From the NCBI GenBank assembly GCA_023137195.1, contig JAGLPV010000005.1, forward strand, positions 1 through 63,711: a stretch of DNA of 63,711 nucleotides, given 5' to 3'. Made by a program: the position numbers and the translations under genes. This DNA is from Candidatus Aenigmatarchaeota archaeon (GTDB lineage: Archaea; EX4484-52). The notes under the pieces were generated by a model. It did not search any database and had not been told where the DNA came from. It worked only from the letters and a program-made list of their open reading frames with translations. How positions within the stretch are numbered: the stretch's first letter is position 1; each line of letters begins with the position of its first letter. This document shows, one piece after another, positions 8,482-53,353 of the stretch.

Positions 8482-8696
8482 GACTTTTCTACATTCTTAC
8501 AAAAAATACGGAAAATTCTGTTCTTTACGCTTACGAGTATTTTCTGCATCCCTACGAAATTTACATGCAGAAAATAACCATGAAAATCGCTGGGCTTACA
8601 AGCAATACCGCGCTTTTCAAGGTGTTTCGGTGCTCACTGCGGAATTTGCTCTCCTTACAGGTTATACGGCAAATTCCTTTGTTCACTACCGAAACA
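8482..8696 (-). repeat. tRNA-trailer structured element, copy A (four GTA-N6-GTA hairpin modules)
   Basis: Starts at the base after the tRNA-Gly discriminator; near-identical to 43608-43772; hairpins at 8641-8677, 8582-8618, 8538-8576 and 8482-8518. Confidence 0.85.
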
Positions 8697-8767
8697 TGCA
8701 CTAGCCGGGAATCGAACCCGGATCGTAAGCTTGGGAAGCTTAAATTCTACCACTATACCACTAATGC
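8697..8767 (-). tRNA. tRNA-Gly(CCC)
   Basis: Acceptor GCATTAG/CTAGTGC+A, anticodon arm TAAGC-TTCCCAA-GCTTA, GGTTCGATTCC T-arm; no intron, CCA not encoded. Confidence 0.96.
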
Positions 8768-10694: not shown

Positions 10695-11198
10695 ATGACA
10701 TGGGATGTATTTATTTGTCACGCAAGTGAAGATAAAGGTTCTATCGCAAAACCACTTGCAGATAAACTAAAGGATAACGATTTAGAAGTATGGTATGATG
10801 AATTTACTCTTAAATTAGGTGACAAATTAAGAAGGAGTATAGATAATGGTCTCAAAGAATCAAAATATGGTATTGTTATACTGAGTGAATCATTTTTTAC
10901 AAAAGAATGACCACAAACCGAATTAGATGGTTTAGTTTCTCTCGAGAAAAAAATAATACCTATTTGGCATAATCTAGAATATCAAGATATTGTAAATTAT
11001 TCCCCTATGCTTGCAGATAGATTAGCCGTAAAAACTCAAAGCGGATTAGATAATGTAGTTAAAAAAATACTAGAACTATTTGATACAAACCACACAGAAA
11101 GACATAAAAGTTCATCTAATAAAAAAAATGAAAGTAATAATCCAAATCATAATGGGAAATTACTATATGGAAGAAAATTAAAAGGAAGGAAGTTATAA
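10695..11198 (+). pseudogene. TIR-domain protein interrupted by an in-frame TGA (10908-10910)
   Basis: WDVFICHASEDK...VWYDEF; the frame continues after the TGA as PQTELDGL...IIPIWH, so the TGA sits at the W of the usual WPQ.ELD motif. Confidence 0.8.
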
Positions 11199-16961: not shown

Positions 16962-17077
16962 ATTATATCACGGCACAAAAGTAATGCAAGTAATGTGGCG
17001 CGATATACTAGCAAAATACATAAATACTATCCAAATACCAATTATATTTTTTGCATATTTATGTGTTTTGCTATAAT
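16962..17077. repeat. Composite palindromic element, short copy (116 bp)
   Basis: Ends ATTATA...TATAAT; two hairpins; shares both ends with 50680-50949. Confidence 0.8.
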
Positions 17078-17303
17078 TCAACCACTTTTTTATTTCTTCA
17101 ACTTCAGGAATTCTGCCCGAAGCCTTTACATCTCCGTCAATTACAATTACCGGAGTCGACATAACACCATAATCAATAATTTTATTGATGTCTGTTACTT
17201 TGACCAACTCTGCTTTTATGCCGGTCTCATCTACCGCTTCTCTTGCATTTTCTTCAAGCTTTTTACATTTCGGACAACCAGTCCCCAATATTTCTATTTT
17301 CAT
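16968..17303 (-). CDS. MTH895/ArsE-family small thioredoxin, with ~35 extra C-terminal residues read through the palindromic element
   Basis: MKIEILG.GCPKC...TP.IVIDG.V...GR.P..EEIKKWL, then element-encoded sequence. Confidence 0.88.
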   Translation of the reverse strand: MKIEILGTGCPKCKKLEENAREAVDETGIKAELVKVTDINKIIDYGVMSTPVIVIDGDVKASGRIPEVEEIKKWLNYSKTHKYAKNIIGIWIVFMYFASISRHITCITFVP

Positions 17304-19968: not shown

Positions 19969-21171
19969 ATGGTGGCAAAAAAAACAAAAAAAGCAGTAAA
20001 AAAAACAGATAAAGCTAAAGTTACAAAAAAAACTACAAACAAGGCAGTTAAAAAAGAAGAAATTAACTCAACAGAAAAAACATCCCAAAAAAGTTCTGGA
20101 AAGAAATGTTCTTCAGATTCTTCAAATACAGGCAATATGTGTAAAACAGAGGCAATATATCTTGCAGCAGGTGTTGTTATAGGTATTTTAATAATGTTTG
20201 CATATACGCAAATAAACCCGACTCCTGTTGATAGTCCCAGTAACAATTACTTATCCTTAAGCGAAGCTGAAGCTGTTGTGTTAGATGTCGTAAAGATGGA
20301 TCCCAACCTGGAAATGTTAAATGTAACTCCTTCTATTATCAATTCAAGTGAATCAAACGGGATGTATTCTGTTAATGTAAAACTATCCGGTCCACAGGGA
20401 GACACAACATTCAACTCTTACATAACTAAAGACGGAAAAGTACTTTTCCCCAAGGGAATAAATGTAGAAGAGTACAAGCAGTTGATTGAACAAGTTAAAG
20501 AAGAGGAATTAAAAGAAGCAGTAGAAGATAATACCGACGATTCATCAAATGAAATAACAGGTAATGTAATCAAACAGTCGACTAACCCTCAATTAGAAGC
20601 CTATGTAGTTTCAAGATGCCCTTTCGGCGTACAGATGCAGAGAATCATGGCAGAAATAATCAAGGAAATTCCTGAAGCAGCAGACAGTATGAATGTAAGA
20701 TACATGGGTGCTGTAGTTGATGATAAAATAACAGCTATGCACGGAGATGTAGAAGCACAGGAAAATCTAAGGCAAATCTGCTTGAGAGAAGAACAGGCAG
20801 ACAAATACTGGCTATATGTTTCATGCTACATGAAAGAAGGAAAAACCGACGAATGCCTGACATCAACCAATGTAGATGCAGACAAACTAAACACATGCAT
20901 GACAGACACTTCAAAAGGTCTTGTTTACGCACAGGTTGACTTTGATTTGAATGAGAAGTATGGCGTAACCGGTTCACCAACTCTAATAATGAATGATGAA
21001 CGAGTAAGCGAATTCGACTTCGGTGGCAGGACAGCAGAAGCAGTAAAATCAGTCTTATGTGAAGGATTTACAACCAAACCAAATTACTGTTCCACAACAC
21101 TTACCGAAGAAAGTGCAGCAGCAAGTCTTTCGCCAACATATTCTGGTGCTTCAAGTTCAGGCAGTTGTTAA
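19969..21171 (+). CDS. Membrane-anchored thioredoxin/DsbA-like protein with a Lys-rich N-terminal tail
   Basis: K-rich N-terminus, one TM, SRCPFG, YGVTGSPTLI; several Cys pairs. Confidence 0.6.
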   Translation: MVAKKTKKAVKKTDKAKVTKKTTNKAVKKEEINSTEKTSQKSSGKKCSSDSSNTGNMCKTEAIYLAAGVVIGILIMFAYTQINPTPVDSPSNNYLSLSEAEAVVLDVVKMDPNLEMLNVTPSIINSSESNGMYSVNVKLSGPQGDTTFNSYITKDGKVLFPKGINVEEYKQLIEQVKEEELKEAVEDNTDDSSNEITGNVIKQSTNPQLEAYVVSRCPFGVQMQRIMAEIIKEIPEAADSMNVRYMGAVVDDKITAMHGDVEAQENLRQICLREEQADKYWLYVSCYMKEGKTDECLTSTNVDADKLNTCMTDTSKGLVYAQVDFDLNEKYGVTGSPTLIMNDERVSEFDFGGRTAEAVKSVLCEGFTTKPNYCSTTLTEESAAASLSPTYSGASSSGSC

Positions 21172-31014: not shown

Positions 31015-31120
31015 GCAATTATGAGATAAAATACTTTAAATATCTTCTATTTTTGCTCCATTGCGTATAATATACATTATACGCAAAACTTTATATAGTT
31101 TTAGTGCCTATTTAAGCCCT

Positions 31121-31969
31121 ATGGGTGGGGTACAGAGAGTAAATAGACCAAAAAACGAGCTTTTGGCAAAAATGCTCACTGAAATGAAACTCAGGGGCTT
31201 TACCGGCGAGACTTACAAGACATATCTTTTCAACACACAAAAATTTATTCTATGGTATAAAAAAGATCCAAAAACAGCAGAACTCGATGACATAAAAGAA
31301 TATCTTGCAGAATTAATTGATGATGGAAAATCATTCAAATCAATTGCTCTCATAAAGTCGGCAATTTTATTTTTGTACAATGAAGTCCTGGGAAAAGCAT
31401 ACAAAATAAAGACACCAAAAACAACAAAGTCTATTCCTGTAGTCCTGACCAAAACAGAAATAAAAAAAATCCTTGACTTTGAGAGCAACCACAGGAACAA
31501 AACAATAATCTGCTTTTTTTATTCTACAGGAATCCGTCTAAGCGAATTAATAAACATGAAATGGGACGATCTGGACATGAATGACAAAATTGCATGGGTT
31601 AGAGAAGGAAAAGGGAAAAAACACAGGATGATAATATTATCAGAAATATTAATTTCATACCTAAGAACCAGTTTAAGGGATAACAGAACACCAAAAGGAT
31701 ATGTCTTCAACGGAAAAACAAAAGATACAATCGCCCCCAGAACAGTGGAGTATATCATCACCAACGCAGCATTAAGGGCAGGAATCAGGAAAAGAGTGCA
31801 TGTACACACCATGAGGCACTCTTTTGCCACTCACTTGCTCGAAAACGGCACAGACATACGTAAAATACAGGAGCTTTTAGGGCATTCTAACCTTGCAACG
31901 ACCCAGATATACACAAGTGTCTCTAAATCCCAGTTAAAGGCAATTTCCAGTCCTATGGACGCATTATAG
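31121..31969 (+). CDS. Tyrosine recombinase, XerA/XerC-like
   Basis: SAM-like N-domain; catalytic set TGIR.SE, GKG.K, HT.RHSFATH, LGH, TTQIY; start uncertain (31061/31121/31172). Confidence 0.93.
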   Translation: MGGVQRVNRPKNELLAKMLTEMKLRGFTGETYKTYLFNTQKFILWYKKDPKTAELDDIKEYLAELIDDGKSFKSIALIKSAILFLYNEVLGKAYKIKTPKTTKSIPVVLTKTEIKKILDFESNHRNKTIICFFYSTGIRLSELINMKWDDLDMNDKIAWVREGKGKKHRMIILSEILISYLRTSLRDNRTPKGYVFNGKTKDTIAPRTVEYIITNAALRAGIRKRVHVHTMRHSFATHLLENGTDIRKIQELLGHSNLATTQIYTSVSKSQLKAISSPMDAL

Positions 31970-43534: not shown

Positions 43535-43607
43535 GGGATGGTAGCTCAGTTGGCAGAGCGCTGGACTGAAGATCCAGGTGTCGCGTGTTCAAGTCACGCC
43601 CATCCCA
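43535..43607 (+). tRNA. tRNA-Phe(GAA)
   Basis: Acceptor GGGATGG/CCATCCC+A, anticodon arm CTGGA-CTGAAGA-TCCAG, TTCAAGT T-loop; no intron. Confidence 0.96.
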
Positions 43608-43772
43608 TGTTTCGGTAGTGAACAAAGGAATTTGCCCCTTAAGAGCAAATTCCGCAGTGAGCACCGAAACACCTTGAAAAGCGCGGTATTTAGCGTAAGC
43701 CCAGCGATTTTCATGGTGTTTTTCTGCACGTAATTTTCGTAAGACTGCAGAAAAATGTCGTAAGCGTAAGAA
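43608..43772 (+). repeat. tRNA-trailer structured element, copy B
   Basis: Starts at the base after the discriminator; same sequence as copy A apart from loop indel/substitutions and compensatory stem changes. Confidence 0.85.
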
Positions 43773-43795
43773 AACGAATCCTCGATATTTATTAT

Positions 43796-50330: not shown

Positions 50331-50702
50331 ATGAAAATAACAATCAACAACAAGGAAATAGACAATATTATTTCAATGAAGAGTATATTTCAACTTACAA
50401 AAGGACTGATGTTCAAAAAAAGCGGCAGAGCTCTACTTGTATTTCCACTTAATGCAAAGCACTCCATCTGGATGGCTTGCATGAAATATTCACTGGATTT
50501 GATTTTCATTGATGAAAACTATAAAATTGTTGATATTTTTGAAGATGTCAAACCATTGACATTAAATCCAAAAACATGGAAAACATATATCCCTAAACAA
50601 AAATGCAGGTATGTACTTGAAGTTGAATCCGGTTTAATCAAAAAATATGATTTGAAAACAGGAATTTTAGTTAAGTTCAATTATATCACGGCACAAAAGT
50701 AA
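50331..50702 (+). CDS. DUF192 family protein; last six codons and stop supplied by the palindromic element
   Basis: KGLMF, IWM..M...LD.IFID, YVLEV..G. Confidence 0.88.
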   Translation: MKITINNKEIDNIISMKSIFQLTKGLMFKKSGRALLVFPLNAKHSIWMACMKYSLDLIFIDENYKIVDIFEDVKPLTLNPKTWKTYIPKQKCRYVLEVESGLIKKYDLKTGILVKFNYITAQK

Positions 50703-50949
50703 GGCAAGTAATGTGGCGTGATATAATCTCAAACGCAATTATATTACCCGTTATGCTAATTGCGTCTTCGAATATATTCACCCGCTCTTTGCGGTCGAAT
50801 ATACTAGCAAAATACATAAATGCTATCTAAATACCGATTATATTTTTGTATTATTTTCTGCTGTGAATAAAGTATAAGCAGAAAATAAGCTTAAAAGTAG
50901 TATTTTGCGTAGGGAAACTTTTATGATTATTTATGTGTTTTGCTATAAA
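50680..50949. repeat. Composite palindromic element, long copy (270 bp) with two nested inserts
   Basis: Same outer modules as 16962-17077, plus a 78-bp and a 76-bp two-hairpin insert. Confidence 0.8.
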
Positions 50950-50954
50950 AATAA

Positions 50955-51569
50955 TTATTTCTTAACTACTTTTTTCTCAGGTTTCTTTACAACTTTCTCG
51001 ACTGCTTTTGGCTTTTTTGCCTCTGTTTTTGGCTTTTCTTCTTTTTTAACAGGTTTTTTTACTACTGTTGTTTTTTCTTCTGCTTTCACAACTTTAGTTT
51101 CCGGCTTTTTGGCTTCTGTTTTTTTCGCTTTTTCCTTTTTGACCTTTTCTTCGAGTGCCTTCTGTTTTTTTGCACCAATTTTTTTTACTCTCGTTGGTGT
51201 ATTTACAACACCAATTCCAAGTTCTTTTGCCTTTTCTACAATCTGGTATTTTTTCTTTAGACCCGTGCTTTTTGAAATCAATACAACATCTTCTGCTTTG
51301 TTTAATTTTTCCACATCAGAGACATTGTGAACTAAAACTTCATATTTTGAATCTGCATTCTTTCCGAAATCTAATTTAGAATTTCCATATCCTACTCTTA
51401 CGAGAGGACCTTTATTGAATTTACCCAATCTTAATTTGTTGTGCCTTCCTCTTGGCTTTCTCCATGTATCTTTCAAACCCTTTTTTCTCCATGAATCTGT
51501 TCTTTTAAAAGATGGCTTAATTCTTTTGGCTACCTGACCTTTATCTGATGATGTTTTTGTATCTGTCAT
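50955..51569 (-). CDS. rpl32e: 50S ribosomal protein L32e with a long K/E/P/V-rich C-terminal tail
   Basis: F.R...WR....L...WRKPRG..NK, VGYG, LVHN..D.E. Confidence 0.9.
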   Translation of the reverse strand: MTDTKTSSDKGQVAKRIKPSFKRTDSWRKKGLKDTWRKPRGRHNKLRLGKFNKGPLVRVGYGNSKLDFGKNADSKYEVLVHNVSDVEKLNKAEDVVLISKSTGLKKKYQIVEKAKELGIGVVNTPTRVKKIGAKKQKALEEKVKKEKAKKTEAKKPETKVVKAEEKTTVVKKPVKKEEKPKTEAKKPKAVEKVVKKPEKKVVKK

Positions 51570-53075: not shown

Positions 53076-53124
53076 ATTAAATAATCGTGATTAAATATAT
53101 AAATATGTATTTATTTTCCACTTA

Positions 53125-53353
53125 TATAGAAATTATGTAATTGGCGTATAATGATTTCTATACATTAAAAGTGATATTAATTGTAAGGCTCTTTTATTGT
53201 ATAGAAATTATGTAATTTGCGTATAATGATTTCTATACATTAAAAGTAGTATTAATTGTAAGGCTCTTTTATTGTTTTTTAATTGTTGTGCAAATTGAAG
53301 GGAAACGATTACAAAACATTAAAAGTAGTATTAATTGTAAGGCTCTTTTATTG
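53125..53353. repeat. Tandem array of palindromic modules X-Y-X-Y-Z-Y overlapping the trpS 3' end
   Basis: X 38 bp (53125, 53200); Y 37 bp (53163, 53238, 53317); Z 42 bp (53275). Confidence 0.9.

Follow-up and report, generated by a model that had tools for sequence, protein, structure and literature searches.

How did the 270-nt non-coding element at positions 50680–50949, which fills the spacer between a DUF192 gene and the convergent gene for ribosomal protein L32e, come to hold two blocks of hairpin DNA that a related 116-bp element at 16962–17077 lacks? Both elements lie in a 63,711-nt stretch of DNA from a Candidatus Aenigmatarchaeota archaeon (the window). A preliminary description, made from the letters alone, had proposed that hairpin pairs of about 75 bp are mobile and insert into earlier copies of the element with short target duplications. 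We found that the longer element is a nested composite in which modules of two hairpins were added to an older backbone in a definite order, and that the repeats at its junctions are not the footprints of a staggered cut. We consider it probable, with considerable room for doubt, that the element belongs to a class of composite non-coding hairpin repeats that are genus-specific and transposase-free and that move as DNA.

The genome under study (G000) is a 1.42-Mb assembly of 57 contigs (35% G+C, 85% complete, with an L32e gene that marks it as archaeal) from a DPANN archaeon in an order of small genomes, and the window element is located on its contig C45. We compared it with two sister genomes of the same genus, G001 and G003, the latter being a metagenome-assembled genome from the Guaymas Basin (QMVB01) that is labelled 'Candidatus Nanohalarchaeota archaeon B49_G9'. 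The genus was sampled by 4 genomes and the order by 42. Coordinates without a contig label are window positions, labels such as C45, C54 and C39 denote contigs of G000, and L-numbers denote public contigs or retrieved stretches. Genes are simple calls of the longest open reading frame (ORF). Contig-level 'alleles' are unreliable here because assemblies of this population mis-join at repeats.

Anatomy of the composite element and its junctions

Alignment of the two elements resolves the 270 nt into the 116-bp copy, a 78-bp block at an ATATA repeat (insert 1) and a 76-bp block at a TATTT repeat (insert 2). The shared part, a backbone of about 113 bp with hairpins H1 and H2, matches at 44 of 46 positions on the left (50680–50725 versus 16962–17007), at 46 of 49 in the middle (50799–50847 versus 17003–17051) and at all 21 on the right (50928–50948 versus 17056–17076). 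The parts of the locus, its neighbours and the reference copy are:

50331–50702, + strand: DUF192 gene; its last 7 codons and TAA stop lie inside H1
50680–50949, + strand: composite element, consisting of the backbone (H1 and H2), insert 1 and insert 2; fills the DUF192/L32e spacer
50682–50725, + strand: backbone hairpin H1, with stem TATATCACGGCAC / GTGGCGTGATATA, a G.G mismatch in the stem and loop AAAA-GTA-AGGCAA-GTA-AT
50726–50803, + strand: insert 1, 78 bp, hairpins a and b; ATATA at 50721 and 50799
50804–50851, + strand: 5′ arm of backbone hairpin H2 (CTAGCAAAATACATAAATG) and the native H2 loop
50852–50927, + strand (or 50857–50932, as its limits are ambiguous by up to 7 nt): insert 2, 76 bp; TATTT at 50852 and 50928
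50928–50949, + strand: 3′ arm of H2 (TATTTATGTGTTTTGCTATA) and right end of the backbone
50955–51569, − strand: ribosomal protein L32e gene, convergent with DUF192 and separated by 5 nt from the element's right end
16962–17077, + strand: insert-free backbone copy, used as the reference for comparison

Folded as single-stranded DNA (ssDNA), the 270 nt form H1, the two hairpins of insert 1 (a, with its stem at about 50733–50741 / 50757–50765, and b, at 50773–50803) and a long H2 stem with both insert-2 hairpins enclosed in it (five hairpin units). The folding energy is −50.8 kcal/mol (z = −8.1), and none of 200 shuffled sequences folds as well. The short copy folds to H1 and H2 alone. Insert 2 begins with a variable hairpin V (TATTTTCTGCT / AGCAGAAAATA), continues with a conserved hairpin C (TAAAAGT-AGTATTTTGCGTAGGGAA-ACTTTTA) and ends in TGAT.

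Most of what the preliminary description had said about this anatomy was reproduced by reading and alignment. Both inserts have the lengths and the bracketing repeats that it gave them, and the ssDNA fold agrees that each is made of two hairpins. The hairpin that it had likened to module Y of an array at 53.1 kb is the second hairpin of insert 2, which is of the same type, and the likeness to a tRNA trailer belongs to the first hairpin of insert 2, which matches the stem of the trailer's third hairpin at 9 of 10 positions. The element also supplies the end of the DUF192 gene, as had been claimed: the Pfam domain stops at residue 115 of 123, and the orthologue in G003 is free of the element and ends in ...AEFKI*.

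The claim of 5-bp target duplications, by contrast, failed. Among six insertion sites, five have the repeats ATTATTT, ATATA, AAT, AGA and T at their junctions and the sixth has no repeat (7, 5, 3, 3, 1 and 0 bp); the TATTT of insert 2 becomes the 7-bp ATTATTT when the usual backbone sequence, GTATTATTTATG, is taken into account. In the fold, one copy of each repeat is paired within an insert stem and the other within a host stem. Of the two ATATA copies, the right one forms the 3′ arm of hairpin b in insert 1 and the left one the foot of H1; of the two TATTT copies, the left one begins the V stem of insert 2 and the right one the 3′ arm of H2. In tandem arrays, where no such host exists, the V stem starts with the same bases. 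Because one copy belongs to the stem of the insert and the other to the stem of the host, the repeats are not staggered-cut footprints. They are intrinsic module ends lying beside similar host sequence, or else microhomology.

Module ends do resemble the sequence beside which they landed. In 7 events, we compared the first 16 nt of the module with the following 16 nt of the host, and the longest shared words summed to 35, compared to a mean of 26.7 for a null of random intergenic 16-mers (P = 0.006, in a post hoc comparison); the signal is carried by the modules built like insert 2 (V+C modules). The host sequences that end just before V+C modules, read with the C hairpin first, are TAAT, TAAT, ATTT and AGTT, which are AT-rich and do not form one motif.

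A network of nested hairpin modules

The backbone is a repeat family in its own right: G000 has about 34 loci, while G003 has 38 matches and G001 has 2. The family was found only in this DPANN genus and is absent from the other families of the order; among public genome and metagenome contigs, the H1 pattern occurs only in G003. The backbone itself is mobile because orthologous sites are empty in sister genomes. The 50680 site has no element in G003, and the 16962 site is empty in G001, where two genes abut. A third spacer, at C54:10721, is empty in G003, which carries a similar composite one spacer further on. At 16962, the insertion has rewritten a gene end: a thioredoxin-like ORF (16968–17303, − strand) runs for 36 extra codons through the whole backbone element to a TGA stop in H1, an extension that lies beyond the Pfam Thioredoxin_3 domain (residues 1–75). 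Its counterpart in G001 ends in ..EWLNEK*, overlaps the start of the next gene and has no element. Between species, the elements are 80–95% identical, while the coding DNA there is 68–79% identical.

When every backbone copy was aligned, large inserts were located at three places only in the consensus. Site 19–22 is the H1 loop and receives a 79-bp module in eight G000 copies, site 39–44 is the junction between H1 and H2 and receives insert 1 and its variants, and site 92–99 is the 3′ edge of the H2 loop and receives insert 2. All combinations of inserts across the three sites are present except the triple one. At the third site, G003 has a different, species-specific module of two hairpins (AACTAAACT..AGTTTAGTT and AGAAATTTGCT..AGCAAAATTCT) with a 1-nt junction repeat (L027, L029, L030, L033 and L037).

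The nested composite that had been described at 50680 is therefore confirmed as one instance of a recurrent arrangement, which goes deeper elsewhere (C54:10721, C1:87984 and C20:15567–16106). At C54:10721, a block of 58 bp with two hairpins lies within the H1-loop module. At C1:87984, C20:15567–16106 and C7:25592–25940, V+C modules lie within the conserved hairpin of insert 2, with smaller hairpins inside those, so that nesting reaches about four levels within 0.5 kb. The family also contains irregular deletions: C15:20120 is without part of H2, and H2 is minimal in the copies on C47 and C3.

The V+C design of about 75 bp, in which a hairpin with a variable stem is directly followed by the conserved hairpin C (..AAGTAGTA..GTAAGG..), is common to insert 2, the 53.1-kb array and, in inverted orientation, the H1-loop module. 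There are about 29 C hairpins, nearly all preceded by a V hairpin, and at least 10 different V stems. V+C modules are found in four unrelated hosts, namely the loops of H2, of H1, of another C hairpin and of a hairpin in a family that we call 'Q', and also in tandem arrays. The insert-2 module occupies the same backbone site in C39, C43, C16, C26 and G003:C41. Among the 42 genomes of the order, V+C modules were not found outside the genus, and the C-hairpin pattern was not found in viral contigs. The proposal that a hairpin pair of about 75 bp is the mobile unit thus stands for the V+C class, with its at least four unrelated hosts and its arrays, and is not borne out for insert 1, which is known from one site only.

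These modules are part of a wider network. Comparing G000 with itself yielded 120 short mosaic repeat loci that form one BLAST-connected network of 20.6 kb (1.45% of the genome), with 82% of its bases outside called ORFs and 21 of the 120 loci no more than 300 bp from the end of a contig. The brick that the loci have in common, a hairpin of about 37 bp, has a 10–13-bp stem and a loop containing GTA-N6-G[TC]A. Between flanks paired at 9 or more of 10 positions, this loop motif occurs 55 times, compared to 1–12 times for six control motifs, and it is carried by about 25 unrelated stems. Its GTA-N6-GTA type is found in H1, in both hairpins of insert 2, in the 53.1-kb array and in the tRNA trailers. 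The single network and the common loop bear out the earlier suggestion that all these loci are linked as one system. Two broader approaches yielded little: a plain hairpin pattern was undiscriminating (75 matches versus 58 in shuffled sequence), and in a covariance model of the hairpin superfamily MAFFT could not register the 3′ arms, as the loop tails vary in length. Other members of the network in the window are:

1559–1663, + strand: copy of the 'Q' family, with AAAATCTTTCA.. / TTGTGTCTAAACT.. hairpins; Q copies elsewhere host V+C inserts
8501–8695, − strand: tRNA-Gly trailer, second copy of the trailer family
43608–43793, + strand: tRNA-Phe trailer, with three hairpins of the GTA-N6-GTA superfamily; hairpin 3 has a stem similar to that of hairpin V in insert 2
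53122–53350, + strand: tandem V+C array with a period of 75–79 bp, of the insert-2 module class; no ORFs between the hairpins

Trailers of three hairpins, about 170–200 nt long and some with an extra hairpin, are found flush with the 3′ ends of many tRNA genes in the sense orientation (window 8501–8720 and 43584–43793; C2:4205, C2:24818, C2:69743, C2:74116, C9:265, C15:6612 and C7:73664). A further modular family is bounded by ATCCACAGGAAC.. / ..GTTCCTGTGGAT and combines a TTCAACAAAGTTGAA hairpin with a variable number of CATCGGTCTTTGACCGATG / TGCGGAAAATC units (C3:517–761, C3:5213–5404, C12:2473–2598, C14:36320–36463, C17:31392–31607 and C21:4373–4778). Repeats of this second family also follow directly after an ORF at C4:54391–55250 that starts with MDSNNALVVFEDKKIRRIWHNDEWYFSVVDMIAIL, which resembles a domain of the Bro-N/KilA-N type.

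The copies at 50680 and elsewhere show the order in which the composite was built. The nearest paralogue, C39:14681–14873, matches the window copy at 109 of 112 backbone positions and at 76 of 77 positions of insert 2, and has no insert 1; its two BLAST segments against the window overlap by exactly one ATATA. Insert 1 is identical at all 78 positions in C45:50680, C54:10721 (10902–10979) and C15:20120 (20170–20247), while the backbones of these copies differ at 8 of 111, 5 of 92 and 4 of 91 positions. If insert and backbone had diverged jointly at about 6%, zero differences in two independent 78-bp comparisons would have a probability of about 1e-4. Insert 1, being identical in backbones that differ at 4–8 positions, is therefore a late arrival. 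Likewise, the H1-loop insert is identical at 78–79 of 79 positions across copies whose backbones are 92–97% identical. The differences in insert state between sister copies on the backbone tree, described below, also agree with recent gain. Consequently, with a near-twin on C39 that lacks insert 1 and an insert 1 that is identical in diverged backbones, events at 50680 ran in this order: the backbone acquired insert 2, the composite was copied, and insert 1 entered last.

Routes of movement and rival explanations

The alignment of backbone copies points to selection for the folding of their stems. Five stem pairs have changes on both sides, a number that none of 500 shuffles reached, and 95% of the alignment cells are paired, compared to 24–57% when the partner is slid by 1–3 columns. 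At H1 pair 7/38, A-T and G-C replace each other. The G.G mismatch in H1 (columns 10 and 35 of alignment A3; window positions 50691 and 50716) is invariant in 27 of 27 copies from three species, and the pair next to it switches between A-T and G-C; the mismatch looks like a recognition feature.

In the mode of movement that we favour, the brick is a hairpin of about 37 bp whose stem may vary freely while its GTA-N6-GTA loop is conserved, and bricks would be used as fixed doublets, either the backbone pair H1+H2 (about 113 bp) or the V+C module (about 75 bp). Doublets would be copied as DNA, the backbone into gene-end spacers and the smaller doublets preferentially into the would-be unpaired places of resident repeats: hairpin loops, the 3′ edge of a loop and the junction of two hairpins. 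Insertion would create no fixed duplication, and the target would be chosen either by microhomology or because it resembles the end of the module. The catalyst would act in trans; the most likely candidates are a structure-specific HUH/Y1-type enzyme acting on ssDNA by 'peel and paste', as for the PATEs derived from IS200/IS605, and template switching during replication at hairpins. A Y1 mechanism would fit the lack of inverted terminal repeats and of a duplication, the presence of a hairpin at each end and a junction word owned once by the flank and once by the element. Microhomologies of variable length would be expected just as well from template switching at stalled hairpins.

A bolder version of this mechanism, which we regard as doubtful, would make the V+C doublet of about 75 nt a minimal ssDNA mobile element of archaea. 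A structure-specific enzyme would read the GTA-N6-GTA loop, the doublet would land in unpaired loops and junctions, and the leading arm of the V stem would act as a re-programmable address that matches the sequence after the target. The same recognition could then explain why the tRNA trailers lie flush with their genes.

The ends of the modules place them outside some classes of element and near others. Miniature inverted-repeat transposable elements, which derive from DDE transposons, share terminal inverted repeats with a parent insertion sequence (IS) and have a target duplication of fixed length; here, TATA..TATA is all that the two backbone ends have in common, neither insert 1 nor insert 2 has ends that are inverted copies of each other (each hairpin is palindromic by itself), the junction repeats have no fixed length, and no parent IS was found. 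As in PATE and IS200/IS605 elements, palindromes lie near the ends (0–5 nt remain outside the stems) without terminal inverted repeats or a duplication; the one specific tetra- or pentanucleotide that lies 5′ of the insertion in those elements was not found here. As in REP/BIME/REPIN repeats, palindromes of about 35 bp form extragenic mosaics at high copy number (over 100 hairpins in 120 loci); a conserved stem with 5′ GTAG and a REP-flanked RAYT gene were not found, the hairpins having about 25 stem classes and a conserved loop.

A search of the genus for mobilizing enzymes found remnants in the sister genomes. G001:C73:5432–5513 (L094) is the start of an IS200/IS605 tnpA gene (..YRIRYHMVFVVKYRKD..), cut by the contig end. 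G003:C64:4904–5074 (L093 1501–1671) is a decayed C-terminal TnpA fragment with an internal stop that scores 32.3 bits, over the cut-off, and beside it lies a DUF772-like fragment of an IS5/IS1182-type transposase (L093 1799–2008, − strand). No usable IS110-type (DEDD) transposase was found in G000. Two candidates were rejected. A link from the region upstream of the G001 tnpA to the G000 repeats came down to 48 shared nt that look like a tRNA-type T-arm fragment and not an IS end, and a 1.7-kb triple repeat on C4, considered as an insertion sequence, is the internal repeat of a giant protein. Integron attC sites have R″-L″/L′-R′ boxes, with gene cassettes between the sites and an IntI integrase; the only tyrosine recombinase seen in the window is of the Xer/phage-integrase type (31061–31969; PF00589, E = 2e-45), is probably the chromosomal dimer resolvase and showed no link to the hairpin repeats.

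Several observations weigh against movement of the modules as DNA. No transposase of any kind is linked to the hairpins: Y1 TnpA (PF01797) has no match in G000 at its 85% completeness, the sole match to the TnpB zinc-ribbon domain there is below the cut-off, and the Y1 fragments of G001 and G003 are not flanked by hairpins of the family. The inserts are not preceded by a common target of 4–5 nt, as IS200/IS605 would require. The only place at which insert 1 was found is the H1|H2 junction of its own backbone. Filled and empty forms of the locus did not appear as a polymorphism within the population among contigs from other assemblies, where those that span the locus are identical to the window. 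The tails of two contigs (L066, SAMN18200497; L067, SAMN18200490) do run from the L32e flank through insert 2 to a differing H2 loop and H1 without insert 1; the two tails have unlike H1 sequences, neither matches any copy in the genome, both end inside the repeat, and they are probably repeat-induced chimeras rather than empty alleles. Insert identity and backbone identity are correlated overall, and therefore much of the spread was that of whole composites and not of single modules. Finally, 17 of the 26 inner branches of the backbone tree are unresolved.

Part of this evidence is what recombination would produce. Each module could have entered the family once and then been passed between the roughly 34 backbones, whose arms are 90–97% identical, through gene conversion or homologous recombination, without any transposition of modules. 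The restriction of insert 1 to one site of one backbone family agrees with this explanation. So does the backbone-only tree, in which insert states are scattered as recombination would also scatter them: all 4 supported sister pairs differ in insert state, and the minimum numbers of state changes are 8, 7 and 6 for 8, 9 and 10 carriers. As it is poorly resolved, the tree shows only that insert states are not clade-bound. Moreover, a public contig joins the flanks of two different copies through the element that they share, which indicates that the copies have the length and similarity needed for recombination, or for an assembler to be misled. This contig (L077; ena:ERZ23498510 scaffold_4778), compared with C54:10066–11049 and C15:18725–20292 of G000, connects the gene on the left of the C54 copy to a gene on the C15 side via the backbone and insert 1, and is either a real recombinant or an assembly chimera. 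However, V+C modules also lie in hosts without flanking homology (the Q-family loop, the loop of another C hairpin and arrays beside genes), and G003 has a different module at the same site. To the left of insert 1, identity stops at 7 nt (a T/C difference in the H1 arm), so a conversion tract would have had to end near the junction in all three copies. We therefore regard shuffling by recombination alone as rather unlikely.

The reverse history, in which the short forms arose from a long ancestor by deletion between short direct repeats or by hairpin slippage and nothing was ever inserted, seems to us less plausible still. Each block is indeed bracketed by a direct repeat (ATATA or ATTATTT) that could mediate its precise loss, and the irregular deletions on C15, C47 and C3 show that sequence is lost within the family. 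But some junctions have repeats of just 0–1 bp, no copy contains all three inserts, the same site holds different modules in different species, and the V+C class is spread over four unrelated hosts and arrays. For insert 1 in particular, deletion is unlikely because its 78 positions are identical across three backbones that have themselves diverged at 4–8 positions.

A role as RNA appears about equally improbable. The repeats could be structured-RNA genes or cis-elements (terminators, stabilizers or protein-binding GUA-N6-GUA hairpins), with the extra hairpin pairs as expansion segments. Their stems covary and their loops are conserved, hairpins of this type lie flush behind tRNA genes in the sense orientation, the elements are better conserved between species than coding DNA is, and motifs similar to GNRA (C-GUAA-G) can be read in the loops. 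Yet the elements show no preferred orientation to their flanking genes, with backbone copies divided 6 versus 6 in tandem-gene contexts and hairpins 16 sense versus 30 antisense; convergent spacers are enriched among those that hold repeats, 24 compared to 10 divergent ones, in a genome that has 204 and 205 of each. Modules of both orientations coexist within one element, so that one transcript would contain both GUA-type and UAC-type loops. At gathering scores, Rfam matched only two tRNAs in the window, and in 50500–51100 at E ≤ 10 its best match had E = 0.29, far below the cut-off. A reverse transcriptase (RVT_1) was found in none of the 4 genus genomes. The lack of orientation bias, the preference for convergent spacers, the two orientations in one element, the lack of an Rfam match and the lack of a reverse transcriptase together argue against a single functional transcript, as do the non-orthologous positions of the elements in sister species and the gene ends that copies have overwritten. 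As a sign of which strand folds, mismatches were uninformative: G.T mismatches are not in general excess over A.C mismatches (14 versus 24), and the excess in the backbone comes from two inherited columns. Judged from the sequence, the loops contain no consistent match to a hammerhead, a K-turn, a bulge-helix-bulge (BHB) intron or a CRESS-type nonamer.

Lastly, a chimera of repeat copies made by the assembler is scarcely credible, even though assemblies of this population break and mis-join at these repeats and 21 of the 120 loci lie near contig ends, because the full 50680 structure is spanned, with unique flanks on both sides, by two contigs from two metagenome samples (801/801 and 800/801 identity), and is therefore not an artefact of one assembly, and because composites with both inserts also occur at C26:30170 and C43:11134.

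Relation to known repeats and significance

We compared the hairpin modules with four kinds of known repeats. The pneumococcal BOX repeats are reportedly built as boxA-boxB(n)-boxC, and enterobacterial ERIC sequences are said to receive insertions of roughly 70 bp at fixed internal sites. As in those families, the repeats described here are modular, hairpin-forming and intergenic, with an optional or repeated internal module at a fixed position; BOX and ERIC are bacterial, are unrelated in sequence and have neither nesting at several levels nor a loop motif that is shared across families.

IS200/IS605 elements are said to move as single strands by 'peel and paste' transposition. Like them, the modules have no inverted terminal repeats or duplication, a subterminal hairpin at each end and a junction word with one copy in the flank and one in the element, and TnpA fragments exist in two genomes of the genus. 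Unlike them, the modules have no constant target of 4–5 nt, no TnpA in G000 or beside the hairpins, and end hairpins that are dissimilar.

Bacterial REP/BIME/REPIN repeats, which are associated with RAYT (a Y1 HUH protein), are imperfect palindromes of about 35 bp in gene-end spacers, with mosaic arrays, a doublet as the replicating unit and a presumed ssDNA hairpin substrate (PMC2817692, PMC3116915). The likenesses are the size and imperfection of the palindromes, their many copies in gene-end spacers, their mosaics and the doublet as the unit, with an ssDNA hairpin as the presumed substrate. The conserved stem, the 5′ GTAG and the REP-flanked RAYT gene of those repeats were not found here. 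The archaeal repeats differ from them in their conserved loop and variable stems, in the unlike hairpins of each doublet and in the insertion of modules into each other's loops.

In the archaeon Haloquadratum walsbyi, PATEs are derived from IS605, with near-terminal palindromes and no target duplication (Dyall-Smith et al. 2011, PMC3119063). PATEs in turn receive SMR-A repeats (about 110 bp) by an unknown route, 192 element-in-element events are recorded, and the mobilization of these repeats, with few or no intact tnpA genes, is called 'enigmatic' (PMC3119063). The repeats described here are likewise archaeal, non-coding, too short for a transposase, palindromic and free of duplications, with a strong tendency to place repeat within repeat. 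They are unrelated in sequence and differ in their 37-bp brick with a conserved loop and variable stem, their fixed doublets and tandem arrays, a nesting of about four levels in 0.5 kb and the absence of any IS605-type parent whose ends match; their host is a 1.4-Mb DPANN genome and not an IS-rich haloarchaeon. By these analogies, the best reading is that PATE/SMR-A of Haloquadratum are their closest known counterparts, along with the bacterial REP, BIME and BOX repeats. No description of such repeats in DPANN archaea was found in the literature searched.

A small, streamlined DPANN genome thus keeps about 1.5% of its length as hairpin repeats that have no genes and are better conserved between species than genes are. 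These repeats rewrite gene ends, having added 7 codons to the DUF192 gene and 36 to that of the thioredoxin-like protein, and they break metagenome assemblies, with at least one join of separate loci, which is relevant to the binning and comparison of genomes. The 50680 locus provides an ordered series of events, and its junction repeats point away from DDE transposases and towards a single-strand mechanism that reads hairpins. It raises the question that the 'enigmatic' SMR and PATE repeats of Haloquadratum also raise, and the conserved loop on a variable stem offers a concrete handle for finding the protein.

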